This document shows positions 22,066 to 41,688 of a stretch of 41,734 nucleotides of DNA, in pieces. Location: the IMG/VR virus record IMGVR_UViG_2850802633_000004. One strand, written 5' to 3'. The notes under the pieces were generated by a model. The model searched no databases and was not told the DNA's origin. It worked only from the letters and a program-made list of their open reading frames with translations. A program made the position numbers and the translations under genes. The stretch's first letter is position 1, and every line of letters begins with the position of its first letter. The stretch comes from a virus (lineage: Duplodnaviria; Heunggongvirae; Uroviricota; Caudoviricetes).

Positions 22066-22689
22066 TTATTCCACGATAAAATTCCTAACCGAATTCAAAT
22101 CCTTCAGACTATTCAGCTCTTCCTTCAGCTCCCGCTGACGGCGATAAATCTCATCGTTGCGATCGACCTGCGCCTGCACCATTGCTGCCGCCAGTTCTTC
22201 CAGTTCCGGCATCGACAGTTTCACCTGCTGATTATCGGCATCGCTCCACGCCATATGTGTTTGTGCTGTGACAGATTTTGCCAGCATGACTACCGGGGAC
22301 AGGCGGCCCAGTGAGTCGGGACCAGCATTCCAGATACGACCGTTCCATTCAAACGTGAACAGCTTCGCCTCCTGTTCTGCGCGCCATGCTTCAATTTCCT
22401 GACGTCTGGCCTCTCTGGCCGCTTCCAGCATTTCTGGTGTCACAGTGAATGGGGCTATCTCACCCCATTTGCCGCTTTGCAGTTCCTGCCAGATTTGCTG
22501 ACCCGTCGGAGCGACATCATCAGCGGTGGCTGTGTAGGGGACTGCCTGGTCCCTGTCGTCAAAAAAAACGTCACAGTCTACTGCGCCACTTTCGGTATAA
22601 CGGGGATTAATGATTTTTTTAATTTCCACGGTGCATTCCTCACGATGTGCGAATAAAAAGCCCGGGCATTGCGCCAGAGACATGAGCAT
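22066..22689 (-). CDS. Phage tail-region protein in tail-fibre-assembly position (207 aa), function unconfirmed
   Basis: Intact ORF directly downstream of side-tail-fibre gene; degraded paralogue at 4837..5462; does not match the lambda Tfa sequence I recall, so family is uncertain. Confidence 0.5.
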   Translation of the reverse strand: MLMSLAQCPGFLFAHREECTVEIKKIINPRYTESGAVDCDVFFDDRDQAVPYTATADDVAPTGQQIWQELQSGKWGEIAPFTVTPEMLEAAREARRQEIEAWRAEQEAKLFTFEWNGRIWNAGPDSLGRLSPVVMLAKSVTAQTHMAWSDADNQQVKLSMPELEELAAAMVQAQVDRNDEIYRRQRELKEELNSLKDLNSVRNFIVE

Positions 22690-22989
22690 CCGGCACCCCG
22701 GACAGGGCGCAATATGACCCCGGTAATGAATGCTCTGAACATCCCGTAATGAAAAATTGTGGGGATGCTATATACGTTCCGGTGGGAGTACTGGGCACTG
22801 AAATCCCCACCGGTCCCAGTCGTGAGCCTCTGTATGACTGCCCCCTGACAAGTCTGATGACTTTATCACCGTCAGCTTCTCCCTGGTACGCAGCAATAAT
22901 CAGCCCGCCAATGTCAGGGTCTCCCCATCTGTTGCGGACAGAGCTCGCCACGATTCTGTAAATAATATCTTCTGTGGTTATATTTATTT

Positions 22990-23825
22990 TCACCCAGTCA
23001 GTCTGGATATGGGCCAGTAGCGGTAGCGGGTGTGATAAATGGGGCCGTTAATGCCGTAAAAAGTAAGGGATTTGGCTCTGTACCGCGGTTCTGTTGTCTC
23101 AGGGCGTGCATCAGTCCACCGGATGCTGAGCACCCCTTCAAACCGTGTGTCGGGTATGATGATGCCGTAGGGGCCAGCAACGGAATATTCACCTGGCAGC
23201 GCATTCCTTACCCAGGCCAGGAAATCACTCTTAGTGTCAAAACGGATAACATCTTCAGGCAGAAAAGCACACCCAAAGCCGAATGCGCCGGGTATCGCCA
23301 GACGGCCTTTTGTCCGGTCGTAAATGTCGCTCTGTGCTTCCATCGTGGCCGCACTTTTCAGCCCCAGATTATCCCGGGACTTCTGTTGTGCCTTTTCGCC
23401 TGCTGCTGCGATTTCAGACAGATGGTTAGCCGTTTTCAGAGTGCCGGTCAGCGCAGCATCAATGTCATTTTTGGCCTGCTCTGCTGCGCCTGCGCCACCA
23501 TTTCCTCAAAGCGTTTGACGACATCTGGTTTCAGGTCGCCCTCATCAGGAGCAATCAGAAAGTCATTCAGCGTACCGGGCTTTGAGTCCTCATATACAGC
23601 AATGTCGCCAACGTTGTACTCGTTGTGCCAGTCCTGTTTCAGATACACACCATATTTTCCAGTCCGCGCATGGAAACAGTATTCACCATCGTTTCCTGTC
23701 ATCACATCAGCAACAGTGTGCATCACCACTTCCGGGGTGTTTACCCGGGATTTCAGAATAATATGGTATCCGGACATGGAGATACCTGCGCCATCAGTCA
23801 GCGCACCTGATATCACTACAGACAT
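22990..23825 (-). pseudogene. Side tail fibre protein (Stf-like), frameshifted
   Basis: N-terminus MSVVISGALTDGAG...VYEDSKPGTLNDFL resembles lambdoid Stf N-termini; frame shifts near 23470 and continues as AKNDIDAALTG...MEAQSDIYDR. Confidence 0.7.
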
Positions 23826-23848
23826 AGTTTTTCTCGCGATAAATTAAA

Positions 23849-24393
23849 TCAGGAAGAAATTTCCGGAGAAGCGGGCCATTCAATGGCGTTGTATGAGGTT
23901 TTATCAGTGATGACACTGAAATCCATCGCCTGCAGCGATTTCGCGTAAATGCGGTACGCTTTCAGTTTTTCCCGGTCTTCGTCGCTGATTAGCCCCAGCA
24001 ACAGGTCTTCTTCCCATTCCCCTGTCCGGGCACTGACCTGAGCCAGAAGGGCATCACGCTCATCTTCCGCTTTGAGTCTGTAGTCAAAGACAAATTCATC
24101 ATTGCGGTAAAACCAGTAACCCGGCGCGGTAATGCGGCGGTTGGCGGTAATATCAGGAACTTCAATAACACTGGCGTTACGGGGTTCAATGCCTGTCACA
24201 TCCTTACCGACCCACACCACGCGACCGTCTCCGGTGTAAGTTATTTTAATTGTGTCCTGGCGAAATTCTTCAGCTCTTCATACCAGTTTTTTCCGTCTTC
24301 TGAAAAAAGCCAGGTGACCGAATATCGTTTTGTCATCTGATATTGTTCTGCTGTTTTCGGATTACCCGTAGTAATATTTTTTAAATGCAACAT
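23849..24393 (-). pseudogene. Tail fibre assembly protein, P2 gpG-like, frameshifted
   Basis: N-terminus [22 protein letters not shown]...WYEELKNF then stop; downstream frame has VIEVPDITANRR matching the gpG motif I recall. Confidence 0.7.
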
Positions 24394-24416
24394 TGTTAAA
24401 TACTCGCTACGTTATA

Positions 24417-24769
24417 CTAGGTGCCATTAATCAGTTTTTGCAGTGGTCGGTAATACACACCGTCAACGTTATCCGCTGAGTTACGGCCGGTATCCGATAT
24501 CGCCATCCCTGACAGCCCGTGTCCCGAAGGTGCGCAAAATCTCCACGAAACGGTGTTACTGCCGGGGCTGTAATACATTTCATGGCCATACCGTACATCC
24601 TGTACCCCCTCTGTTCGATATTTATAGCGGGCATCGAAGTTTCCGTAATTTAACGGAATTACCTGTCCGTTAACAGTGAACACTATGCTGTTATCCGGGT
24701 TTCTCTGGCTGAAAAAATGCCAGCCTGAATCATCGCCAAGCTCTGCAACAACAGGCCTGGATGGATTAC
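24417..24769 (-). pseudogene. Tail fibre protein C-terminal fragment, truncated 5' by IS600 copy 3
   Basis: ORF reads out of the IS600 end into a Gly/Tyr/Asn-rich tail-fibre-like C-terminus directly upstream of the gpG-like gene. Confidence 0.5.
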
Positions 24770-25718
24770 TGAGGTGTACTGGCAATAGCGGACACTACCA
24801 TTTGTTCTTTTTTTAAGCAGTCATCTGATGATATTTTTCCCTGAAGGCTGCCGGGGAGATATTCCCCAGACGAGAGTGACGACGCTGACGATTGTAGAAA
24901 ATCTCAATGTATTCCCGTATTACTGAGATGGCTTCATCCCGGTTATTAAAACGATAGTGGCTCAGGCTCTCATTTTTCAGCGTTCCCCAGAAGCTTTCCA
25001 TCGGAGCGTTGTCGTAACAGTTACCTTTACGCGACATTGATGTTTTCAGACCAGACTGCTCCTGTATGACCCGGTAATCGTATGCGCAGTACTGTGAACC
25101 TCGATCAGAGTGGTGGATTAGCCCGGCAGGTGGGCGCTGGCTCCTGAGCGCCATAAACAGGGCTTTACCTGTCAGCTCTTTTGTCATGCGCTCTCCCATG
25201 GCGTAGCCGACAATTTCACACGTATAAACATCTTTGATGCCAGCGAGGTACAACCATCCCTCCTGTGTGGCAACATACGTCAGGTCCGCCACCCAGACCT
25301 GATTTGGTGCTGTAGGAGCGAACGTCTGGTTCAGCAGATTTGGCGCAACTGGCAGATTGTGGTTCGGGTTCGTAGTCGCTCTGAACTTGCGTTTCTGCTT
25401 ACAGCGTAGCCTCAGCTCCTTACGAAGACGTGCCAGTCGGTCACGACCAACGATGATGCCATTCTCTGCCAGCTCCGTCTGGAGCCGCCGGGTTCCATAT
25501 GTTTCGCGAGTGCGGATATGTGCCACCTTAATCTCCAGTTTTAGCCGCTCATCACTTTGTTTTCTGTCTGAGGGTTCATGCTGTACCCAGTTGTAATAAC
25601 CGCTCCTGGATACACCAAATACCTGACACATCGCTTCAATGGGAAATTGTTGTCGCCATTGTTCGATTAACGCGTATTTTTCAGCGACTCCTGTGCAAAA
25701 TACGCTGTTGCTTTTTTT
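24770..25718 (-). mobile_element. IS600 copy 3, truncated (orfA end missing) by IS1 copy A
   Basis: IS600 sequence from the orfB-side terminus runs to ...GCTGTTGCTTTTTTT then abuts the IS1 inverted repeat. Confidence 0.85.
24813..25631 (-). CDS. IS600 OrfB transposase
   Basis: 272-aa ORF. Confidence 0.85.
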   Translation of the reverse strand: MCQVFGVSRSGYYNWVQHEPSDRKQSDERLKLEIKVAHIRTRETYGTRRLQTELAENGIIVGRDRLARLRKELRLRCKQKRKFRATTNPNHNLPVAPNLLNQTFAPTAPNQVWVADLTYVATQEGWLYLAGIKDVYTCEIVGYAMGERMTKELTGKALFMALRSQRPPAGLIHHSDRGSQYCAYDYRVIQEQSGLKTSMSRKGNCYDNAPMESFWGTLKNESLSHYRFNNRDEAISVIREYIEIFYNRQRRHSRLGNISPAAFREKYHQMTA

Positions 25719-25733
25719 GGTAATGACTCCAAC

Positions 25734-26237
25734 TTACTGATAGTGTTTTATGTTCAGATAATGCCCGATGACCTTGTCATGCAGCTCCACCGATTTTGAG
25801 AACGACAGTGACTTCCGTCCCAGCCTTGCCAGATGTTGTCTCAGATTCAGATTATGTCGCTCAATGCGCTGAGTGTAACGCTTGCTGATAACGTGCAGCT
25901 TTCCCTTCAGGCGTGATTCATACAGCGGCCAGCCATCCGTCATCCATACCACGACCTCAAAGGCCGACAGCAGGCTCAGAAGACGCTCCAGTGTGGCCAG
26001 AGTGCGTTCCCCGAAGACGTGCGCCACAACCGTCCTCCGTATCCTGTCATACGCGTAAAACAGCCAGCGCTGACGTGATTTAGCACCGACGTAGCCCCAA
26101 TGTTCGTCCATTTCAGCGCAGACAATCACATCACTGCCCGGTTGTATGCGCGAGGTTACCGACTGCGGCCTGAGTTTTTTAAGTGACGTAAAACCGTGTT
26201 GAGGCCAACGCCCATAATGCGTGCGCTGGCGCGACAT
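25734..26237 (-). CDS. insB: IS1 InsB (expressed as InsAB' by frameshift)
   Basis: 167-aa ORF. Confidence 0.85.
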
Positions 26238-26431
26238 CCGACGCCATTCATGGCCATATCAATGATTTTCTGGTGCGTACCGGGCTGAGAGGCGGTGTAA
26301 GTGAACTGTAGTTGCCATGTTTTACGGCAATGAGAGCAGAGATAGCGCTGATGTCCGGCAGTGCTTTTGCCGTTACGCACCACGCCTTCAGTAGCGGAGC
26401 AGGAAGGACATCTGATGGAAATGGAAGCCAC
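26156..26431 (-). CDS. insA: IS1 InsA
   Basis: 91-aa [25 protein letters not shown]... Confidence 0.9.
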
Positions 26432-26486
26432 GCAAGCACCTTAAAATCACCATCATACACTAAATCAGTAAGTTGGCAGCATTACC

Positions 26487-26660
26487 CGCGTTAAGTTCTT
26501 CGAGCATCTTACGAATATCACGAAGGACATTTCGGTGCTCCTTGCCTGTCAGCTCAGCAATTTCAACTGAGGTCATGGACACAAGCTGGTCGAGGTTAAT
26601 GATGCTGATTTCTTGTTGTGGTTGTTGTGGTTGTTGTGGTTGTTGTGGTTGTTGAGACAT
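26487..26660 (-). pseudogene. Rha/antirepressor-like phage regulatory protein, N-terminal 58 codons only (truncated by IS1)
   Basis: MSQQPQQPQQPQQPQQEISIINLDQLVSMTSVEIAELTGKEHRNVLRDIRKMLEEL; RBS AAGGAAA upstream. Confidence 0.6.
26614..26652. repeat. 9-bp tandem repeat (CAACAACCA, about 4.5 units) encoding (QQP)n
   Basis: Read directly: TTGTTGTGG repeated on plus strand. Confidence 0.8.
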
Positions 26661-26811
26661 CGCTTGATTTCCTTTTTGTTTGCACCCTGAAGTCGCACCC
26701 CCACTGACCTACTCAAAGTCCCCAAGCGAAGGGAGACCAGCAGGACAACAGGATGCAAACAGAATGACTTTGAGATTGAATACTATGATGATGACGATGT
26801 AGCTGTGCGGA

Positions 26812-27052
26812 GCTACTGGGAGGGTCTCTCTAGGAGCCACTCTAGGGTCTCTCTAGGGTCTCTCTAGGCATCAGGCTATACGAAACTACAGGGCATCCTA
26901 AAGAATGACGTACAGGGCCATAGAGGACCATAGAGGACCATAGAGGGCCATAGAGTTAGCTTCTGGGGGTAATGCCTAGAGGAGACCCTAGAGAGACCTA
27001 TAGAGAGACCATAGAGAAGACCTATAGAGAGACCCTAGAGAAGACCTATAGG
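26812..27052. repeat. Array of short direct repeats (CTAGAGAGACC / CCATAGAGG types) in non-coding DNA
   Basis: Read directly; 3x TAGGGTCTCTC, 4x CCATAGAGG, several CCTAGAGAGACC variants; no ORF over 60 aa. Confidence 0.8.
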
Positions 27053-27094
27053 TTTGGTGATTGATTATTATAAATATCATCACCCCTTAAGGTA

Positions 27095-27240
27095 TTCCCT
27101 TAGAGTTAATCTTTAATTGGTCTTTAATTAAATCTTTTATTTAATACTTAAAGTTAATCTCTAATTGTGTCTTTAAGTTAACTTTAAGTAATACTATAAG
27201 TTAATCTTTAATTGTGTCTTTAAGTTAACTTTAAGTTAAG
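27095..27240. repeat. AT-rich repeat array (CTTTAAGTTAA type) with a 37-bp unit duplicated
   Basis: GTTAATCTNTAATTGTGTCTTTAAGTTAACTTTAAGT occurs twice (about 27152 and 27200). Confidence 0.8.
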
Positions 27241-27433
27241 CCCCTGTAGGGACTAGAGACCATAATTAAGATGATTGTGTCTTATTGCTATTCACTTATC
27301 GACTGACCCAGAGCACACAGGAAGCATTCACTTTAAGTAGAACGCTTGGTGTCTGTAATTGGTCATCCCGCCCCTGAAAGGATGCGATAAGTTACGGTTA
27401 GTTGTCCTAGAAGAGAAAACTTTTTGTGTCCCT

Positions 27434-27456
27434 TCTCCCTATAGTGAGTCGTATTA
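27434..27456 (-). promoter_or_regulatory. T7-class phage RNA polymerase promoter, 23/23 match to TAATACGACTCACTATAGGGAGA
   Basis: Minus-strand sequence is the exact T7 consensus promoter; predicted transcription runs toward lower coordinates into the repeat arrays and Rha-like gene. Confidence 0.8.
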
Positions 27457-27543
27457 ATTATCCTTGACAAGTAGAGAAAACTATGAGTCAAAAACATGAC
27501 CACACAGGTCTGTAGTAAGTGTCATCCTAGACTATGGTCTCCT

Positions 27544-29148
27544 CTAGGTCTCCTTATAAACATCAGCCATCACATTGACCAGCCTATCAACCTCGACCTC
27601 TTTAGCATAACGGTCGTACGTAATAGACCCTGAACTATGCCCCATGATCGCCTGTGCATACGCCAACTCGACCCCATGTTGTTTTAACTGGGTCGCAACT
27701 GTATGTCTAAACGAGTGAAACGCTAAGCCGCTACGGTCTACGAGGACTTTAGGCAACAACGTCCGATTAAACCATTTACTCACCTGCTCACCGTAACCGT
27801 TCTTCATGAGACGCAGACCATCGAACACCATAGCGTCATCACCGTCAGCGCCTCTACGGGTCTCTACAAGCGCCATAAAGTCAGCCAATATAAAACCATA
27901 GGCCCCATCGACCAGAGGCACACAGCGGTCACTATGAGCGTTCTTGATGCTCTTACCGGGTAGACTACTATCGTCTTCATTGATATGAATATAAACGGTT
28001 CCCGCCTCAGTGGTCCTGACGTCTTTGACCTGTAGTTGGGCTATTTCATTGAGTCTCGCCCCAGTGATAGCAGCCAAGGCGGTAACATAATAATGATACG
28101 GCTTACCAGAGGTCTTCTGAGAGTATGCCTTAGCTGCGACCAGTAGTTGCCCCACCTGCTCCGTAGAGAAGGCGTTACGGGCCCCTGAGGCTTTACGCTG
28201 AGGGACTTTAAGCTCCAGACCCTCAGTCATGTTCTTTTTAATCAAGTCATTGCGCACAGCCCACCTAAAGACAGCAGCCATCTTAATAAGATACTTGTTG
28301 TTGATGGTAACGACATCCAGACAATCTGTCTTATCTTCACGGCTCAACAGGTCAGCAAGTGGGACATCCTTGAAGCGCTGCTTACGGTTCCTAGGTAACT
28401 GCTGGAGCACATCACGGACCCTAAGCATGTCAGCCCTGTTAGCGTCTGCATTGAGACCCAGATGGTCGAATATTTCGATTAACGCAGCGTGTGACGCCTT
28501 GTTTTCCCTTAAGGTTGCAGGCTTCCAGTTCTGATAGTTCTCCGCTTCGTATTGCTCAAAGAGGCTCGCTATGGTAATGCTAGGCGTAACTTCTGGTTTT
28601 ACTTCTGGAGCATTAACAGATAGGGACACAGAGTCTGCTTGGTTATCTTGCCTATCAATATCATTAAAAAGATCGACGTAATCTATCAGAGGCTGACTGT
28701 CTCCCGCTTCGATACGCCTCATACAGGCTTTTAGCACCTTCAGGGCCTCATTGATGTAACGATGCTGGTCAATGCTTAGCGGCTCACTAGCCAGAGCATC
28801 GGTAAGGCTCTCACCAAGTTCTCCGTATTGGTCCCGGTAGATATCCCTCATGTCAGGCTCAAAGAGATCTGAACGGCCCATAGACAGTTCACACTCAGCG
28901 ATGTCCTTAAGGTGTTCCCTCATTTCCTCGTAGGTAGCGTTGGGTCTGTCTGCGTGTATTGCCTTGAGTGCTGCCTTTATGTGCCTTGAGTAAGCCATAG
29001 CGGTGCGTCTATCCTTGGTCCGTAATGATATTGAGGTCATTCTATCATTGTTTGATTGTCTGACCCTAAGACGGAAGTAGTAGACGCCGTTACGCTGGTA
29101 GAGATAGTAGACTGCTGGAAGTTTGTGACTACTGGATAGCTGAATCAT
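27544..29148 (-). CDS. Large tyrosine recombinase/integrase (534 aa)
   Basis: Catalytic motifs ITGARLNE (Arg), HSFRHTVAT (His-x-x-Arg), HSSGSITYDRYAK (Tyr); start 115 bp downstream of tRNA-Gly 3' end. Confidence 0.85.
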   Translation of the reverse strand: MIQLSSSHKLPAVYYLYQRNGVYYFRLRVRQSNNDRMTSISLRTKDRRTAMAYSRHIKAALKAIHADRPNATYEEMREHLKDIAECELSMGRSDLFEPDMRDIYRDQYGELGESLTDALASEPLSIDQHRYINEALKVLKACMRRIEAGDSQPLIDYVDLFNDIDRQDNQADSVSLSVNAPEVKPEVTPSITIASLFEQYEAENYQNWKPATLRENKASHAALIEIFDHLGLNADANRADMLRVRDVLQQLPRNRKQRFKDVPLADLLSREDKTDCLDVVTINNKYLIKMAAVFRWAVRNDLIKKNMTEGLELKVPQRKASGARNAFSTEQVGQLLVAAKAYSQKTSGKPYHYYVTALAAITGARLNEIAQLQVKDVRTTEAGTVYIHINEDDSSLPGKSIKNAHSDRCVPLVDGAYGFILADFMALVETRRGADGDDAMVFDGLRLMKNGYGEQVSKWFNRTLLPKVLVDRSGLAFHSFRHTVATQLKQHGVELAYAQAIMGHSSGSITYDRYAKEVEVDRLVNVMADVYKET

Positions 29149-29262: not shown

Positions 29263-29337
<75 letters not shown>

Positions 29338-29340
29338 ATA

Positions 29341-29416
<76 letters not shown>

Positions 29417-29418
29417 GC

Positions 29419-29495
29419 TGGCCCACCACCGAGGACTCGAACCTCGCACCGTCAACTTAGAAGGTTGATGCTCTATCCGGATGAGCTAGTGGTGG
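29419..29495 (-). tRNA. tRNA-Arg (anticodon UCU)
   Basis: Hand-folded; acceptor CCACCAC/GTGGTGG, anticodon loop CTTCTAA, T-loop TTCGAGT, CCA end. Confidence 0.75.
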
Positions 29496-29496
29496 T

Positions 29497-29573
29497 TGGT
29501 GGCCCTTGCTGGACTTGAACCAGCGACCTGGCGATTATGAGTCGCTCGCTCTGACCAACTGAGCTAAAGGGCC
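29497..29573 (-). tRNA. tRNA with CAU anticodon (elongator Met or lysidine-modified Ile2)
   Basis: Hand-folded; acceptor GGCCCTT/AAGGGCC with G1-C72 pair (not initiator-like), anticodon loop CTCATAA, T-loop TTCAAGT, CCA end. Confidence 0.75.
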
Positions 29574-29661
29574 GGAGGCAGAATAATAACCATATGTCAT
29601 CACATCTGCAAACTCATCTGACCACCAGCGCGTTTAACGCCCTGTGCCATTTTTCAGGCAC

Positions 29662-29684
29662 AAAAAAACCCGCATAAAGCGGGT
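29662..29684 (-). terminator. Rho-independent terminator (ACCCGC-ataaa-GCGGGT followed by U7 on minus strand)
   Basis: Hairpin plus T-run read directly; lies between the ORF6N gene stop and the tRNA cluster. Confidence 0.6.
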
Positions 29685-30334
29685 TCTTTCAAGTGTCCAT
29701 GTCTGCTATTCGCCTCGCGATACAGCTTTGCGAAGCTTACCGGAATTGAAGCAGTTTATGTGCAAAAATGCAAGAACTTTTTTAAAGCTGCATCAACCTT
29801 TCCACCAGTTTATCTCTGCGAACAACAAACCAACCATTGGCTCTCGCCAGTTCCAGCCATGACTCAAGGGAAATAACAATATCATCATCCCGTAACTGAA
29901 TTGTGGAAACAGTGACACCGCCTCTCTGATAACAGAGAACTCGCGTGTCGTAACTTTTCTGGCATGAAACTGGCGTTGACGGATCCCTTTGACTGAAATA
30001 GCAGTCTTCCAGTTTTTCGAACACATCCCACGCCTGATCGGTTTCGAGCATTTTGCCGTGGCGTGCTGCGCCTCGTTCTGTCCAGAGGATGAGGGAGCGG
30101 GCTTTGGGTGAAACTGGATTTTGTGAGTAGTTTAAAGCGACCCGCAATTCTTTAAGGTCATTACCAACAACTTTGAAAAAGTGTTTCCCTTCAACGAAGC
30201 GTACTTTGTTCTCATGATGATTCTGGCGAATACGCACCGGCTCAGTGCCGTAAAGCTGCGCCAAAAGTTCGGTGGTAATAACAGGAATCTGTGAGGTGTA
30301 CTGGCAATAGCGGACACTACCATTTGTTCTTTTT

Positions 30335-31153
30335 TTAAGCAGCCATCTGATGATATTTTTCCCTGAAGGCTGCCGGGGAGATATTCCCCAGACGAGAGTG
30401 ACGACGCTGACGATTGTAGAAAATCTCAATGTATTCCCGTATTACTGAGATGGCTTCATCCCGGTTATTAAAACGATAGTGGCTCAGGCTCTCATTTTTC
30501 AGCGTTCCCCAGAAGCTTTCCATCGGAGCGTTGTCGTAACAGTTACCTTTACGCGACATTGATGTTTTCAGACCAGACTGCTCCTGTATGACCCGGTAAT
30601 CGTATGCGCAGTACTGTGAACCTCGATCAGAGTGGTGGATTAGCCCGGCAGGTGGGCGCTGGCTCCTGAGCGCCATAAACAGGGCTTTACCTGTCAGCTC
30701 TTTTGTCATGCGCTCTCCCATGGCGTAGCCGACAATTTCACACGTATAAACATCTTTGATGCCAGCGAGGTACAACCATCCCTCCTGTGTGGCAACATAC
30801 GTCAGGTCCGCCACCCAGACCTGATTTGGTGCTGTAGGAGCGAACGTCTGGTTCAGCAGATTTGGCGCAACTGGCAGATTGTGGTTCGGGTTCGTAGTCG
30901 CTCTGAACTTGCGTTTCTGCTTACAGCGTAGCCTCAGCTCCTTACGAAGACGTGCCAGTCGGTCACGACCAACGATGATGCCATTCTCTGCCAGCTCCGT
31001 CTGGAGCCGCCGGGTTCCATATGTTTCGCGAGTGCGGATATGTGCCACCTTAATCTCCAGTTTTAGCCGCTCATCACTTTGTTTTCTGTCTGAGGGTTCA
31101 TGCTGTACCCAGTTGTAATAACCGCTCCTGGATACACCAAATACCTGACACAT
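30335..31153 (-). CDS. IS600 OrfB transposase
   Basis: 272-aa ORF. Confidence 0.9.
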   Translation of the reverse strand: MCQVFGVSRSGYYNWVQHEPSDRKQSDERLKLEIKVAHIRTRETYGTRRLQTELAENGIIVGRDRLARLRKELRLRCKQKRKFRATTNPNHNLPVAPNLLNQTFAPTAPNQVWVADLTYVATQEGWLYLAGIKDVYTCEIVGYAMGERMTKELTGKALFMALRSQRPPAGLIHHSDRGSQYCAYDYRVIQEQSGLKTSMSRKGNCYDNAPMESFWGTLKNESLSHYRFNNRDEAISVIREYIEIFYNRQRRHSRLGNISPAAFREKYHQMAA

Positions 31154-31188
31154 CGCTTCAATGGGAAATTGTTGTCGCCATTGTTCGA

Positions 31189-31491
31189 TTAACGCGTATT
31201 TTTCAGCGACTCCTGTGCAAAATACGCTGTTGCTTTTTTTAATATATCTCGCTCAAGGCGAGCTTCATTTAACGCCTTACGCAGTTGCAGAATTTCAGAT
31301 TCCAGTTCAGCCACCGTGCGGGAACCAGGAGTACCGAGCCCTTTTCTGGCGGCGGTAACCCATTGTCCTAAAGTGCCTTCAGGAAGGGATAATCGGGAAG
31401 CGCCTTCACTGATCGAAAGTTGATTTTCAAGAACCGTTCTGACAGCTTCGGCTTTGAACTCTTTAGAGTAACGTTGGGTTTTTCTGCTCAT
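31189..31491 (-). CDS. IS600 OrfA
   Basis: 100-aa ORF. Confidence 0.9.
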   Translation of the reverse strand: MSRKTQRYSKEFKAEAVRTVLENQLSISEGASRLSLPEGTLGQWVTAARKGLGTPGSRTVAELESEILQLRKALNEARLERDILKKATAYFAQESLKNTR

Positions 31492-31769
31492 TATTAGCTC
31501 CTTCTGATGCCATTCTATTTCAGGAAGGAGTGTCCGTTAAACTCAGGCTACCTCACTGGTTATGGGTGATCGGGGAGAGAGTTTCAACAGAGATTTGAGT
31601 GGTCATAACGATAACTCCGTACATTTGGAAATTATCGCCACCGACGACGCCAATCGAACTGGTGGCGAACTGTGCAGGGTTGGCGTAACCGGGTACGGAA
31701 ACCGGCGAGCCTTTCGGCTCCCCCACACAGCCCGCCATAAATCGCGAATGTGACTGTGCAAACGATATG

Positions 31770-31882: not shown

Positions 31883-32433
31883 CAAACGGTTTTTAGATCC
31901 CCGGAAGAGAATGCATCACGCATCGGTAGATAGAGCATATATTCAGCAAGATTTAGCCATACATCTACCCGACTGCAGCACGTCCGGAAACACCACTCAG
32001 GGTGTGCGTCATTCAGCAATTCAGCCATTTTACGCTTAGTCATCCCCCGCCCTTCATACCGTTGCCGGAGGACACTAATCAATCCAGGATGCTCTGCCAG
32101 CACCTCACTTATGACTCTATCAATACATAACGCCTCTGCATCAGTACAATGCGCCAGCCAGGTCTTTTGCTTGCCATTGATCATCTCTCGCAAAAACGCT
32201 TCCAGCTCAGGTTTCTCTATTCCCGCTTTTTTCATCCTGCGCAGGGCTTCATTGACGGCTGTTTTCGTCAATTTTTTGGATGCCAGCAACTGGTTAAACA
32301 TATTTCCCGTCTTACCGCCGCCAATATACGACCAGCGCCCCCACATGCGCAGTTTTCCCTGAATCCAGACACTTTCCAGCGTGGTGAGACGAAGGTGTTC
32401 CCCGCTTTTGCCTGTATTTGTTGGGTAAATCAT
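31879..32433 (-). CDS. Putative late-gene antiterminator Q (positional assignment)
   Basis: 184-aa ORF from internal Met (MIYPTNTGKSGEHL...), start overlaps ybcO-like stop (ATGA); followed by PR'/tR'-like signals; family not verified. Confidence 0.5.
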   Translation of the reverse strand: MIYPTNTGKSGEHLRLTTLESVWIQGKLRMWGRWSYIGGGKTGNMFNQLLASKKLTKTAVNEALRRMKKAGIEKPELEAFLREMINGKQKTWLAHCTDAEALCIDRVISEVLAEHPGLISVLRQRYEGRGMTKRKMAELLNDAHPEWCFRTCCSRVDVWLNLAEYMLYLPMRDAFSSGDLKTVC

Positions 32434-32720
32434 AAATAACCTTCCTTTCTCCAGATTTCTTGTGTGCGAAAAACACCTTCTGCATGCATCAGGCGTAATT
32501 CTTCTTTGGTGTAATCGCTGGTTTTTACCCGCCCGTCGATTAAATCGTGGCATGAGCTACAGGCAATCGCTGCCTGCATATCGTGTGGTTTTGTCGCTGT
32601 TCCGCACGTCCCCGCCAGCCTGTAATGCGCCAGCACAGAAGTTTCGGGATTGTGATTGCAGTAGCCAGGAATTCTGACGGTGCACATCTGCCCCCGCGCC
32701 GCTTTACGTAAATCCACCAT
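32430..32720 (-). CDS. ybcO: YbcO-like nin-region protein (DUF1364, Cys/His-rich putative nuclease)
   Basis: MVDLRKAARGQMCTVRIPGYCNHNPETSVLAH... closely parallels my recollection of E. coli DLP12 YbcO. Confidence 0.75.
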   Translation of the reverse strand: MVDLRKAARGQMCTVRIPGYCNHNPETSVLAHYRLAGTCGTATKPHDMQAAIACSSCHDLIDGRVKTSDYTKEELRLMHAEGVFRTQEIWRKEGYL

Positions 32721-33319
32721 TACGCAAACTCCAGTAACTGCGCGGCCACATTTTCGACTTCCTCCGGAGAGGAAAATTTACGGAACAGGATCCAGTTCCA
32801 CAGCACATTCAGTACAGATTTATAAACCTGCTGAAACTCGGTTTCGTCCATGTTCGCAAATGCGATAGATTTTGCCCTGCGCCCACGACTACCATCAGGA
32901 TAAATATGCTCGGTGTAAAATCCGGCCTGAATGGTTACCCACTCGCGGAAAGCGTCAAACGACTTTAGCAATGCCGTATCCCGGGTTCTGCATGTCGCAA
33001 CTGTATTAAGGTATTGCTCTGCGGCATCACTCAGGGCTGGAGTGTGTTCCCGACCTACTGATTCGCACAGGTAATCAACGAAGCCTGATACCAGTTTTCG
33101 TTCGCGAGGCGTGATCGCCCCACCGACCGGAGTCCAGTAATCAAATCCCAGTTGCAGGAGTTTGAAAAAACGCTTGTGGAATGCGTAGTTACGCACACGC
33201 TTAAAGTCTGCGTGTATCCACTCACCTATTTTGATTTGATGCAAAAAATCGCAACTCTCCGGCGTCGCCGGGAGAAGTAATCCGGAAGAGGTTTGTTTGA
33301 CCAGTTGTATATGCGCCAT
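32720..33319 (-). CDS. Lambdoid nin-region protein (DUF1367-like), 199 aa
   Basis: ORF immediately upstream of ybcO-like gene with overlapping start/stop; family from memory. Confidence 0.5.
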   Translation of the reverse strand: MAHIQLVKQTSSGLLLPATPESCDFLHQIKIGEWIHADFKRVRNYAFHKRFFKLLQLGFDYWTPVGGAITPRERKLVSGFVDYLCESVGREHTPALSDAAEQYLNTVATCRTRDTALLKSFDAFREWVTIQAGFYTEHIYPDGSRGRRAKSIAFANMDETEFQQVYKSVLNVLWNWILFRKFSSPEEVENVAAQLLEFA

Positions 33320-33452
33320 CGTAGTTCTCCGCTGGCGCAGTAGAATGGGTGTTCAGCCCGTTATGTAGTATACCAGAATTAATGCCAATACTAACAGGGT
33401 AATGCTGCCAACTTACTGATTTAGTGTATGATGGTGATTTTAAGGTGCTTGC

Positions 33453-33728
33453 GTGGCTTCCATTTCCATCAGATGTCCTTCCTGCTCCGCTACTGAAGGC
33501 GTGGTGCGTAACGGCAAAAGCACTGCCGGACATCAGCGCTATCTCTGCTCTCATTGCCGTAAAACATGGCAACTACAGTTCACTTACACCGCCTCTCAGC
33601 CCGGTACGCACCAGAAAATCATTGATATGGCCATGAATGGCGTCGGATGTCGCGCCAGTGCACGCATTATGGGCGTTGGCCTCAACACGGTTTTACGTCA
33701 CTTAAAAAACTCAGGCCGCAGTCGGTAA
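33453..33728 (+). CDS. insA: IS1 InsA
   Basis: 91-aa ORF. Confidence 0.9.
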
Positions 33729-34150
33729 CCTCGCGCATACAACCGGGCAGTGATGTGATTGTCTGCGCTGAAATGGACGAACATTGGGGCTACGTCGGTG
33801 CTAAATCACGTCAGCGCTGGCTGTTTTACGCGTATGACAGGATACGGAGGACGGTTGTGGCGCACGTCTTCGGTGAACGCACTCTGGCCACACTGGAGCG
33901 TCTTCTGAGCCTGCTGTCGGCCTTTGAGGTCGTGGTATGGATGACGGATGGCTGGCCGCTGTATGAACCACGCCTGAAGGGAAAGCTGCACGTTATCAGC
34001 AAGCGTTACACTCAGCGCATTGAGCGACATAATCTGAATCTGAGACAACATCTGGCAAGGCTGGTACGGAAGTCACTGTCGTTCTCAAAATCGGTGGAGC
34101 TGCATGACAAGGTCATCGGGCATTATCTGAACATAAAACACTATCAGTAA
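33647..34150 (+). CDS. insB: IS1 InsB
   Basis: 167-aa ORF. Confidence 0.85.
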
Positions 34151-34167
34151 GTTGGAGTCATTACCTA

Positions 34168-34564: not shown

Positions 34565-34586
34565 CAAAAAACCCGCCGAAGCGGGT
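34565..34586 (-). terminator. Rho-independent terminator downstream of hokD (ACCCGC-cgaa-GCGGGT + U-run on minus)
   Basis: Read directly. Confidence 0.6.
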
Positions 34587-34655
34587 TTAGTGCGGGTGCG
34601 TTGAGGATGCCTGACACATGAGAGGTGGCGAGGGATTTCTCCCCCGCCTGGTCTC

Positions 34656-34811
34656 TTACTCCTCAGGTTCGTAAGCTGTGAAGACAGCGACCTCCGTCTG
34701 GCCGGTTCGGATTCGTACCTCGCAGAGGTCTTTCCTCGTTACCAGTGCCGTCACTATGACGGTTAAACAGATGACGATCAGGGCGATTAACATCGCCTTT
34801 TGCTGCTTCAT
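34656..34811 (-). CDS. hokD: Hok/Gef-family type I toxin (HokD/RelF-like, 51 aa)
   Basis: MKQQKAMLIALIVICLTVIVTALVTRKDLCEVRIRTGQTEVAVFTAYEPEE matches my recollection of E. coli HokD; in-frame upstream extension in ORF track is probably not translated. Confidence 0.85.
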   Translation of the reverse strand: MKQQKAMLIALIVICLTVIVTALVTRKDLCEVRIRTGQTEVAVFTAYEPEE

Positions 34812-35154
34812 AGCCTGCTTCTCCTTGCCTTTCGGCACGTAAGAGGCTAACCTACATTTGTGAGACATAGATTGGGCCTCAGATTAATGTTAAGCGTCTT
34901 GCAGGACGCGTAATGTTAACTGGGGCTTTTCTCTGTCTGCCTTACAGTGGCATGCCCGAGGCAGACAGCCTCAAGCACCCGCAGCAATCTTACCGATACC
35001 GATAAGAAAACGCTATTTTTTATTGCCAGCACCTTCTATCCAGGCTAATTTATCTGCGTCAGAACGGCGCAATGCGCTCGCCTGAGATACGTTTACTTGC
35101 CATGGTAACAACAGGTAACGGCAATTGCTGTTTCTGTTTTGTTTCCTTCAAAAA

Positions 35155-37327: not shown

Positions 37328-37411
37328 GCTCCTCTCCTTTGATGCGAATGCCAGCGGTAATTGAAGCCTGAGGTGTACTGGCAATAGCGGACACTACCAT
37401 TTGTTCTTTTT

Positions 37412-38230
37412 TTAAGCAGTCATCTGATGATATTTTTCCCTGAAGGCTGCCGGGGAGATATTCCCCAGACGAGAGTGACGACGCTGACGATTGTAGAAAA
37501 TCTCAATGTATTCCCGTATTACTGAGATGGCTTCATCCCGGTTATTAAAACGATAGTGGCTCAGGCTCTCATTTTTCAGCGTTCCCCAGAAGCTTTCCAT
37601 CGGAGCGTTGTCGTAACAGTTACCTTTACGCGACATTGATGTTTTCAGACCAGACTGCTCCTGTATGACCCGGTAATCGTATGCGCAGTACTGTGAACCT
37701 CGATCAGAGTGGTGGATTAGCCCGGCAGGTGGGCGCTGGCTCCTGAGCGCCATAAACAGGGCTTTACCTGTCAGCTCTTTTGTCATGCGCTCTCCCATGG
37801 CGTAGCCGACAATTTCACACGTATAAACATCTTTGATGCCAGCGAGGTACAACCATCCCTCCTGTGTGGCAACATACGTCAGGTCCGCCACCCAGACCTG
37901 ATTTGGTGCTGTAGGAGCGAACGTCTGGTTCAGCAGATTTGGCGCAACTGGCAGATTGTGGTTCGGGTTCGTAGTCGCTCTGAACTTGCGTTTCTGCTTA
38001 CAGCGTAGCCTCAGCTCCTTACGAAGACGTGCCAGTCGGTCACGACCAACGATGATGCCATTCTCTGCCAGCTCCGTCTGGAGCCGCCGGGTTCCATATG
38101 TTTCGCGAGTGCGGATATGTGCCACCTTAATCTCCAGTTTTAGCCGCTCATCACTTTGTTTTCTGTCTGAGGGTTCATGCTGTACCCAGTTGTAATAACC
38201 GCTCCTGGATACACCAAATACCTGACACAT
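37412..38230 (-). CDS. IS600 OrfB transposase
   Basis: 272-aa ORF. Confidence 0.9.
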   Translation of the reverse strand: MCQVFGVSRSGYYNWVQHEPSDRKQSDERLKLEIKVAHIRTRETYGTRRLQTELAENGIIVGRDRLARLRKELRLRCKQKRKFRATTNPNHNLPVAPNLLNQTFAPTAPNQVWVADLTYVATQEGWLYLAGIKDVYTCEIVGYAMGERMTKELTGKALFMALRSQRPPAGLIHHSDRGSQYCAYDYRVIQEQSGLKTSMSRKGNCYDNAPMESFWGTLKNESLSHYRFNNRDEAISVIREYIEIFYNRQRRHSRLGNISPAAFREKYHQMTA

Positions 38231-38265
38231 CGCTTCAATGGGAAATTGTTGTCGCCATTGTTCGA

Positions 38266-38568
38266 TTAACGCGTATTTTTCAGCGACTCCTGTGCAAAAT
38301 ACGCTGTTGCTTTTTTTAATATATCTCGCTCAAGGCGAGCTTCATTTAACGCCTTACGCAGTTGCAGAATTTCAGATTCCAGTTCAGCCACCGTGCGGGA
38401 ACCAGGAGTACCGAGCCCTTTTCTGGCGGCGGTAACCCATTGTCCTAAAGTGCCTTCAGGAAGGGATAATCGGGAAGCGCCTTCACTGATCGAAAGTTGA
38501 TTTTCAAGAACCGTTCTGACAGCTTCGGCTTTGAACTCTTTAGAGTAACGTTGGGTTTTTCTGCTCAT
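38266..38568 (-). CDS. IS600 OrfA
   Basis: 100-aa ORF. Confidence 0.9.
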   Translation of the reverse strand: MSRKTQRYSKEFKAEAVRTVLENQLSISEGASRLSLPEGTLGQWVTAARKGLGTPGSRTVAELESEILQLRKALNEARLERDILKKATAYFAQESLKNTR

Positions 38569-38651
38569 TATTAGCTCCTTCTGATGCCATTCTATTTCAG
38601 GAAGGAGTGTCCGTTAAACTCAGGCTACCTCAGCCTGATAGCTAATTTCAT

Positions 38652-40480: not shown

Positions 40481-40582
40481 AAAATCCCGAAACTCCCTTC
40501 CGGAAGGGAAGGGTTTGGGATGGGTTAGATCTGTTTTTAGATCTTTATCTGTATCTTTATTAGTTGCCTTTGTGTTGGCATC

Positions 40583-41688
40583 TAGACTGGCCCCCTGAAT
40601 CTCCAGACAACCAGTATCACTTATTTAAGTGATAGTCTTAATACTAGTTTTTAGACTAGTCATTGGAGAACAGATGATTGATGTCTTAGGGCCGGAGAAA
40701 CGCAGACGGCGTACCACACAGGAAAAGATCGCAATTGTTCAGCAGAGCTTTGAACCGGGGATGACGGTCTCCCTCGTTGCCCGGCAACATGGTGTAGCAG
40801 CCAGCCAGTTATTTCTCTGGCGTAAGCAATACCAGGAAGGAAGTCTTACTGCTGTGGCCGCCGGAGAACAGGTTGTTCCTGCCTCTGAACTTGCTGCCGC
40901 CATGAAGCAGATTAAAGAACTCCAGCGCCTGCTCGGCAAGAAAACGATGGAAAATGAACTCCTCAAAGAAGCCGTTGAATATGGACGGGCAAAAAAGTGG
41001 ATAGCGCACGCGCCCTTATTGCCCGGGGATGGGGAGTAAGCTTAGTCAGCCGTTGTCTCCGGGTGTCGCGTGCGCAGTTGCACGTCATTCTCAGACGAAC
41101 CGATGACTGGATGGATGGCCGCCGCAGTCGTCACACTGATGATACGGATGTGCTTCTCCGTATACACCATGTTATCGGAGAGCTGCCCACGTATGGTTAT
41201 CGTCGGGTATGGGCGCTGCTTCGCAGACAGGCAGAACTTGATGGTATGCCTGCGATCAATGCCAAACGTGTTTACCGGCTCATGCGCCAGAATGCGCTGT
41301 TGCTTGAGCGAAAACCTGCTGTACCGCCATCGAAACGGGCACATACAGGCAGAGTGGCCGTGAAAGAAAGCAATCAGCGATGGTGCTCTGACGGGTTCGA
41401 GTTCTGCTGTGATAACGGAGAGAGACTGCGTGTCACGTTCGCGCTGGACTGCTGTGATCGTGAGGCACTGCACTGGGCGGTGACTACCGGCGGCTTCAAC
41501 AGTGAAACAGTACAGGACGTCATGCTGGGAGCGGTGGAACGCCGCTTCGGCAACGATCTTCCGTCGTCTCCAGTGGAGTGGCTGACGGATAATGGTTCAT
41601 GCTACCGGGCTAATGAAACACGCCAGTTCGCCCGGATGTTGGGACTTGAACCGAAGAACACGGCGGTGCGGAGTCCGGAGAGTAACGT
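40583..41688 (+). mobile_element. IS2 copy 2, truncated at about 41688 where sequence diverges from IS2
   Basis: Left end identical to copy 1; from 41689 (after ...GGAGAGTAACG) sequence no longer matches copy 1. Confidence 0.8.
40674..41039 (+). CDS. insC: IS2 InsC
   Basis: Identical to 7806..8171. Confidence 0.9.

Follow-up and report, generated by a model that had tools for sequence, protein, structure and literature searches.

The DNA considered here, referred to below as the window, is a stretch of 41,734 nucleotides from a virus of the Caudoviricetes (IMG/VR record IMGVR_UViG_2850802633_000004). Eight copies of insertion sequences (IS) lie within its 41.7 kb, and the sit transporter and ipaH have been kept while the morphogenesis genes have been lost. 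At the centre of this analysis is a joint at which a tail-fibre gene interrupted by a truncated IS600 is connected, through an IS1, to the 5' stump of a gene for a Rha-like phage regulator. The joint is very probably the scar of one IS1-bounded deletion inside a single degraded Shigella prophage of the phiP27 type, with a lambdoid early region and a Mu-type tail. The positions originally assigned to it, 24770-26660, are exact and run from the right end of IS600 to the start codon of the Rha gene.

Anatomy of the joint

Self-BLAST of the window reveals five copies of IS600, all in one orientation. Four are complete, with 1264 bp each (490-1753, 11381-12644, 30292-31555 and 37369-38632), and three of these four are flanked by 3-bp target duplications (AAC, CTG and GCC), which serve as an internal control. 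The copy at the joint, the third in the window (24770-25718, minus strand), retains 949 of the 1264 nt. Its sequence agrees to 99.9% with nt 1-949 of the complete copies (counted in the orientation of the window), and the match ends there, inside orfA. The right inverted repeat (IRR) end TGAGGTGTACTG, orfB (24813-25631) and the last 52 nt of orfA (25667-25718) are preserved. The missing 315 nt comprise most of orfA and the left inverted repeat (IRL) end, so that this copy is unable to transpose; they are absent from the rest of the window, as judged by self-BLAST. In E. coli records, the element at 24770-25718 is annotated as the IS3-like element IS600. The hallmarks of this IS3-family element are a length of 1264 bp, ends of the TGAGGTG...CACCTCA type and an orfA/orfB pair with a programmed frameshift, of which the third copy has the right end and orfB only. 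The second copy (11381-12644) is the complete one without a 3-bp duplication. Its left flank, TTGAGGTAGCCTG (11366-11380), is the tip of an inverted IS600 end and constitutes a second IS-on-IS scar in the window.

The base that follows nt 949 of the truncated IS600 is the first of the IRR of a complete IS1 (25719-26486, minus strand). Both ends of this IS1 can be read directly: the IRR, GGTAATGACTCC, starts at 25719, and the IRL ends at 26486, where it adjoins codon 58 of the Rha-family gene. The element has the 768 bp and the imperfect terminal inverted repeats of about 23 bp (GGTAATG...CTGAT) that are characteristic of IS1, and its genes insA (26156-26431, 91 aa) and insB (25734-26237, 167 aa) are intact. 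The Pfam domains Zn_ribbon_InsA, HTH_Tnp_IS1 and DDE_Tnp_IS1 (PF03811, PF12759 and PF03400) were found on the fused IS1 transposase products of L010 and L011, the latter corresponding to the junction IS1 and the former to the other complete copy in the window. Two statements of the original prediction, namely that IS600 ends inside orfA at an IS1 inverted repeat and that the opposite IS1 end truncates the Rha-like gene, are thus borne out to the base.

The 9-bp flanks of the junction IS1, TGCTTTTTT and CGCGTTAAG, differ from each other, and there is no target-site duplication. The absence of an 8-9-bp duplication is expected of a derivative of a deletion or of recombination and is no argument against the identity of the element as IS1. 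After a simple insertion, the element would be bordered by a duplication and its flanks would be contiguous. The junction IS1 shows neither, and it therefore marks a rearrangement joint.

Two further IS1 copies were found by self-BLAST, bringing the number in the window to three, two complete and one internally deleted. The second complete copy (IS1_B, 33398-34165) is inverted relative to the junction IS1, from which it differs by four mismatches (99.5% identity). Its two sides carry the same 9 bp, TACTAACAG, as a perfect target duplication, and it represents a simple insertion that separates the DUF1367 gene from the hok region. As a candidate partner for an inversion it was rejected, given its own duplication and the fact that neither of its flanks continues IS600 or Rha. 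The internally deleted copy (16826-17315) has lost 270 bp (nt 356-625) between two 8-bp repeats, AGCGCTGA, and is without a flanking target duplication. Comparison of the three copies for signs of a recombinant, hybrid IS1 was uninformative, as they differ by only 3-4 scattered mismatches.

On the far side of the junction IS1, the Rha/Ant-like regulator gene is reduced to a 5' remnant of 58 codons (26487-26660, minus strand; MSQQPQQPQQPQQPQQEISIINLDQLVSMTSVEIAELTGKEHRNVLRDIRKMLEELNA), which matches the PHROG anti-repressor families and positions 1-31 of the 91 positions of Pfam Phage_pRha (PF09669; E = 6.9e-10). A full-length homologue of 234 aa, from E. coli 21AR0133, spans positions 1-90 of the same family (E = 7.6e-18). 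When this protein was used as a tblastn query, only its residues 1-41 aligned to the window, and the C-terminal remainder was absent from it. The N-terminus of the remnant contains a (QQP)n stretch encoded by 4.7 copies of the 9-bp tandem repeat TTGTTGTGG (26613-26654; TRF). The number of copies differs among Shigella strains, giving products of 60, 63 and 66 aa, and the 21AR0133 homologue is without this extension. The close relatives of the remnant retrieved by a word-based search with the 58-aa query (P0005-P0019) are all short or truncated products of 31-102 aa, which may reflect either recurrent inactivation of the gene or a bias of that search. In records from S. flexneri, E. coli and S. 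Typhi, such relatives split into different out-of-frame tails soon after the motif ...EELNA/G.

Two ends, probably of one prophage

To the left of the joint, the right end of IS600 cuts a tail-fibre gene, of which a 3' fragment with the last ~117 codons remains (24417-24769, minus strand). PHROG tail-fibre families match the C-terminal part of this fragment, for example phrog_6859 at positions 248-339 of 346 (E = 1e-36). A tail-fibre assembly gene, a 'tail fibre N-terminal domain' gene and a DUF4376 gene follow on the minus strand. The same block occurs at 95-96% identity beside ipaH in ten complete E. coli genomes, and those of the ten that were examined are ipaH-carrying enteroinvasive E. 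coli (EIEC) strains. In E. coli RMDEC465, the fragment is 98% identical to the 3' end of an intact gene for a 402-aa 'phage tail protein' (L020, 12127-13335), and 98% identity also holds for the terminal 500 nt of the left flank; the match stops where IS600 has inserted. The intact gene continues without interruption across that point and on into genes for baseplate and tail. Ahead of it lies a phiP27-type late region that is nearly complete, consisting of holin, lysozyme, Rz, HNH, P27-type terminase, portal, protease, capsid, sheath, tube, tape measure and baseplate genes.

The window also contains two 300-nt prophage duplications with 100% identity, 5011-5310 being repeated at 22238-22537 and 7714-8013 at 40582-40881. 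The duplicated segments place a DUF4376 gene beside ipaH at one site and beside the sit genes at the other, and the region is therefore a mosaic of two related prophage remnants.

To the right of the joint, the minus strand carries, upstream of the Rha stump, a non-coding segment of 883 nt, an integrase gene, a gene for tRNA-Gly(TCC) and three more tRNA genes. The integrase (27544-29148, minus strand) is a tyrosine recombinase of 534 aa that matches Pfam Phage_integrase (E = 4.4e-18), the phrog_1 integrase family and, weakly, DUF6538. It lies 115 nt from the 3' end of tRNA-Gly(TCC) (29263-29337, minus strand; ARAGORN and Rfam tRNA), which faces it. The other three tRNA genes, for Thr(TGT), Arg(TCT) and Met/Ile2(CAT), lie at 29341-29573 (minus strand; ARAGORN) and mark the early-gene side of the prophage. 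In the direction of transcription, the cluster thus reads Met/Ile2(CAT)-Arg(TCT)-Thr(TGT)-Gly(TCC) (29263-29573) and follows the Q-region genes. On its right in the window are ORF6N, DUF1133, DUF1364/YbcO, DUF1367, hok, DUF551 and DUF977, which represent the nin/Q side of a lambdoid prophage.

Both flanks are matched by a single prophage of the enteroinvasive E. coli O121 strain 201805972, which is located between ipaH and yfaA/gyrA. The corresponding blocks of the window are 22096-24769 (94-98% identity), 29265-29784 (93.9%), 31921-33319 (92.4%) and 34568-34988 (93.6%). They occur in the O121 prophage in the same order and orientation as in the window, with baseplate remnants and lysis genes between the first two of them. 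The tRNA cluster, 93.9% identical to that of the window, is located there downstream of the DUF1133 (Q-region) gene, and the holin, lysozyme and Rz genes come next. The fourth tRNA of the O121 cluster is a 71-nt 'tRNA-Val' with a 1-nt deletion in its acceptor stem. The sequences on the two sides of IS1 had been called unrelated in the original prediction. This does not hold, since one of them is the early/tRNA end and the other the tail-fibre end of the same lambdoid phiP27-like prophage.

The present adjacency of the two flanks is nevertheless secondary, as had been supposed. They are not contiguous in any of the relatives RMDEC465, 21AR0133 and CP054892.1, and a chimeric query with 500 nt from each flank found them adjacent in none of 5426 complete E. 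coli genomes, the best coverage being 50%. The same adjacency without an IS1, which would have spoken for an ancestral neighbourhood, was likewise seen in 0 of the 5426. The flanks are hence apart in relatives, their order and orientation are kept, and they are joined exactly at the IS termini, as is characteristic of an IS-bounded deletion. An IS1-mediated deletion or inversion had initially been proposed. Since an inversion would have flipped one side, the preserved order and orientation in O121 strongly favour the deletion, and the inversion is not upheld by this comparison.

The Rha gene itself is foreign to the lambdoid framework. An alignment shows that the body of tRNA-Gly, the last gene of the prophage cluster, is of the prophage type in the window, and that island-type sequence begins immediately 3' of its CCA end, which represents an attL junction. 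Homologues of the integrase with 80-95% DNA identity are present in 373 of the 5426 E. coli genomes. The copies examined lie beside glyU and actS, with a similar non-coding segment after each. The gene for the 234-aa Rha homologue comes next in strain 21AR0133 and continues into further island genes. The island is bounded there by 17-bp repeats of the glyU 3' end, TCCCTTCGCCCGCTCCA, located at 227-243 and 7569-7585 of locus L019. It contains the integrase, the non-coding segment, Rha, a 67-aa open reading frame (ORF), ISEc68, a DUF6971 gene and a 373-aa ORF, and is ~6.1 kb long without the IS.

A prophage counterpart was found in CP054892.1 (L021). It has the ORF6N::IS600-tRNA segment of the window at 98.2% identity over 1734 nt, together with a complete variant of the island, in which the Rha gene also runs on into further island genes. 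These are followed by the displaced 3' end of the tRNA (attR, TCCCGCTGCCCGCTCCA, at 10998-11014) and then by holin and lysozyme genes, with 94.7% identity to the pair that follows the tRNA cluster in the O121 prophage. The layout of L021 is the one to be expected before the deletion. The far tRNA repeat is found in both L019 (7569-7585) and L021 and is missing from the window because it would have been deleted. Farther along L021 (11522-12974), an IS600 truncates the lysozyme gene of the prophage and borders directly on chromosomal genes for a Flavodoxin_2 protein and a DEAD/HA2 helicase, and a similar prophage would therefore have lost its late region through a different IS. On short contigs (L012-L014), an identical integrase is located beside the NinH-Q region of a different lambdoid prophage, implying that the island has used prophage tRNA genes more than once. 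Judged by these comparisons, the Rha gene is to be assigned to a small integrative island nested in the prophage's own tRNA-Gly.

The joint could also have arisen by IS1 recombination between two separate loci, with IS600 sitting in the tail-fibre gene of one prophage and Rha in an island within another. A large inversion or deletion would then have brought together flanks that never belonged to one prophage. Shigella chromosomes contain many lambdoid remnants and many IS1 copies, and the window alone has three IS1, five IS600 and duplicated prophage segments (5011-5310 = 22238-22537). L021 moreover represents a second, very similar ORF6N::IS600-tRNA-island segment in Shigella-type genomes. 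We nonetheless consider this origin unlikely. The order and orientation of both flanks match the single O121 prophage, no fragment with the missing IS600 end or the Rha C-terminus is present in the window, and the inverted IS1 located 6.9 kb away, a simple insertion with its own perfect 9-bp duplication, is no inversion partner. One deletion within one prophage thus remains the preferred explanation.

Course, extent and distribution of the probable deletion

The point at which IS600 is cut is a documented insertion point of IS1. In another prophage of E. coli O121 201805972 (L016; NZ_CP119441.1, 1934449-1936171), an IS1A has inserted at the same nt 949 of an IS600 and in the same orientation. 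It is only 91% identical to the junction IS1 and therefore stems from an independent event. This IS1A is a simple insertion, being followed by nt 942-1264 of IS600 and accompanied by the 8-bp duplication CTTTTTTT, and the host of the nested pair is a prophage ATPase gene. The two structures share the IRR abutting nt 949 and the relative orientation of the elements, but differ in the presence of the duplication, the IS1 isoform and the host gene. The IS600(949)/IS1 joint was found in one of the 5426 E. coli genomes, where it is this simple insertion; most matches to a query with the IS600'-IS1 structure were unrelated copies of IS600 and IS1 within joining distance.

The recurrent use of this site also bears on the notion that IS1 landed later in an IS600-Rha join that some other event had already made, and that its duplication was since erased. 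The anatomy alone would be compatible with such a course if the duplication had later disappeared, and nothing specific supports it. The 8-9-bp duplication is missing here although both IS1_B and the IS1A of L016 have one, both breakpoints coincide exactly with the IS1 termini, and the breakpoint on the IS600 side is the very position at which IS1 is known to insert. Furthermore, a join of IS600(949) to Rha (codon 58) without an IS1 was not seen among the 5426 E. coli genomes. A late arrival of IS1 is accordingly a very improbable account of the joint, and the single deletion bounded by IS1 is followed below.

The ancestral prophage would have carried, on the minus strand, its replication genes followed by DUF1367, DUF1364, DUF1133, ORF6N and the tRNAs (Met/Ile2, Arg, Thr and Gly). 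At tRNA-Gly, an island of ~6-7 kb would have been inserted, made up of int, the T7-promoter module described below, Rha, two or three small genes and attR. Beyond the island, the holin, lysozyme, Rz, terminase, head, tail and baseplate genes would have led to the tail-fibre gene, Tfa, the tail fibre N gene and DUF4376. We infer that IS600 first inserted into the tail-fibre gene, and that IS1 then inserted into IS600 at nt 949, in a T-run. Finally, the DNA between the IRL end of IS1 and Rha codon 58 would have been lost. This last step may have been an adjacent deletion made by intramolecular transposition of IS1, or the element may have recombined with another IS1 lying in Rha in direct orientation; deletion by the transposase and homologous (RecA) recombination are indistinguishable because both give the same product. 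A mirror order would be equally compatible, in which IS1 came first, into Rha, and the end point of the deletion fell on the hot spot in IS600, because deletion end points are chosen like insertion targets. By either order, the outcome would be a prophage unable to make particles and an island reduced to its integrase, the promoter module and a 58-codon stub.

The extent of the loss can be estimated from the relatives. In RMDEC465, the distance from the holin gene to the tail-fibre breakpoint is 20.8 kb, including a 1.4-kb IS4, and in phiP27 the tRNAs are ~21 kb away from the same tail-fibre gene. Between Rha codon 41 and attR, L019 has ~3 kb (not counting ISEc68) and L021 has 2.9 kb. The total loss would thus be on the order of 23-25 kb, composed of ~0.3 kb of IS600 (315 nt), 19-21 kb of phage late genes and ~3 kb of the island. 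The genes removed would be those for lysis, head, tail and baseplate.

Several points weigh against this reconstruction. No intermediate was found in the lineage, neither an IS600::IS1 with duplication in the tail-fibre gene nor a Rha::IS1 with duplication. The comparator prophages are relatives with 92-98% identity and not the immediate ancestor, and that of O121 is degraded as well. Reciprocal junctions were looked for within the window, and the DNA-level genome search covered the E. coli collection. The 3-bp duplication of the truncated IS600 is unreadable, because the left end of this copy has been deleted.

The scar is not confined to the window. Seven independent NCBI assemblies contain the contiguous IS600'-IS1-Rha' structure, six of them on contigs of >1 Mb, with 100% identity over 3301 nt in CP026768.1 and 99-99.9% in the others. 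According to a pINV phylogeny paper, CP026768.1 is S. flexneri 93-3063 (serotype Y) and CP026792.1 is S. flexneri 61-4982 (4b). CP049606, which also has the junction, is S. boydii 600080, the only strain for which a PacBio and Illumina hybrid assembly is documented. A 60-aa product with the tail GNAANLLI, which arises by read-through into IS1, is named from S. flexneri 5a M90T. In all likelihood, the window itself therefore stems from S. flexneri. The scar is old enough or mobile enough to be common to S. flexneri and one S. boydii strain. This recurrence also argues against a false join of the assembly across a repeated IS1. Being present in many copies, IS1 and IS600 frequently cause breaks or false joins in short-read assemblies, and most contigs carrying the integrase are only 2-5 kb long. 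With the same contiguous structure in seven independent assemblies, among them those of S. flexneri 93-3063, S. flexneri 61-4982 and S. boydii 600080, an artefact is hardly credible.

In kind, the joint is already known and represents ordinary IS-driven prophage decay. It resembles the classical adjacent deletions promoted by IS1 in the gal region of E. coli in having an intact IS1 at the novel joint, an end point at the IS1 terminus, no duplication and a preserved orientation. It differs in that two other mobile elements, IS600 and an integrative island, are linked here, inside a prophage. Decay of prophages and genomes driven by the expansion of IS1 and IS600 is textbook knowledge for Shigella and has reportedly been described in the genome papers of S. 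flexneri 301 and 2457T and in later IS surveys. With its high IS density, the lost morphogenesis genes and the retained sit and ipaH cargo, the window does not differ from it in kind. The Stx2e phage phiP27 and related EIEC ipaH prophages share with the reconstructed ancestor the order of Q, tRNAs, lysis genes, P27-type terminase, head, Mu-type tail, tail fibre, Tfa, tail fibre and a DUF4376-type gene, with 83% identity in the tail-fibre region. The prophage of the window differs from these in the loss of the whole late region, in its sit genes and in the island nested in tRNA-Gly.

The island and its T7 promoter

The 883-nt non-coding module between the integrase and Rha (26661-27543, minus strand) consists of a T7 promoter, an AT-rich array and arrays of shorter period. 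The promoter, TAATACGACTCACTATAGGGAGA, reads from 27456 to 27434 on the minus strand, is exact in 23 of the 23 positions of the T7 class III promoter, for which 0 occurrences are expected by chance, and is aimed at the Rha gene. It is followed by the AT-rich array, with a period of 47 bp (27104-27236), and by arrays with periods of 10-12 bp (26821-27051), all detected by TRF. Replication origins of T7 have the same layout, with a T7 promoter followed by an AT-rich stretch. An Rfam search of the segment (26661-27543) matched no family. When a phage collection was searched with high sensitivity, the match was limited to 58 nt surrounding the promoter, in Vi06, a T7-like phage of Salmonella. The idea that the segment is T7-like DNA overall was thus rejected in favour of similarity in the promoter only, with the reservation that the low-complexity filter of BLAST may have hidden the repeat arrays.

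The promoter is a recurrent feature of the island. The perfect 23-mer is present in 13 of 17 other island-bearing loci that were fetched (L001, L002/L019 and L005-L014), and twice in 21AR0133. About 450 nt around and downstream of it are near-invariant among three island variants whose integrase genes are 79-94% identical. L021-L024 have only diverged T7-promoter-like sites, at 7075-7700 in L021, 7050-7680 in L022 and L023, and 7105-7700 in L024. These distant variants contain two to four T7-group promoter-like sites with the core TCACTATAGGG and altered specificity positions, for example TTATACCCTCACTATAGGGGAA, which suggests a tuning to different T7-like phages. The promoter module occurs, unannotated, in 91 of the 5426 E. 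coli genomes, and literature searches yielded no relevant account of an island with a T7 promoter or of a T7 satellite. The Rha gene is the first gene of the promoter-distal cassette of the island and not a regulator of the prophage proper.

Some variants of the island are connected to a known anti-T7 gene. In glyU islands represented by L022 (6386-7045) and L023 (5277-5936), a DUF4145 gene overlaps the stop codon of the integrase gene and matches the anti-T7 gene PD-T7-4 (PADLOC PDLC04109) with E = 1.3e-102. According to Vassallo et al. (bioRxiv 10.1101/2022.05.12.491691), PD-T7-4 and an integrase gene often overlap, and the term 'T7 promoter' occurs nowhere in the text of that preprint. The truncated island of the window falls into the same integrase/Rha family, some variants of which carry PD-T7-4. 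Its own variant differs in having no PD-T7-4 gene, the promoter module following directly upon the integrase stop in the window.

Given this architecture, it is conceivable that the element cut by IS1 is the remnant of an undescribed class of tRNA-Gly islands of ~6-7 kb, with copies at chromosomal glyU and in prophages, that are wired to phages of the T7 group. Infection by T7 might switch such an island on and perhaps replicate it, which would make it a defence element triggered by phage, or else a satellite; the IS1 deletion would have silenced the copy in Shigella. This proposal is put forward tentatively and with less than even confidence.

The joint shows how a Shigella prophage lost its entire late region yet kept its cargo genes. 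The present gene neighbourhood should accordingly not be read as an operon or a functional module, which is useful for annotation, if unsurprising. The Rha stump traces back to a family of T7-promoter-bearing islands that is related to the PD-T7-4 locus, and this family merits study in the intact E. coli copies rather than in the stump left in the window.

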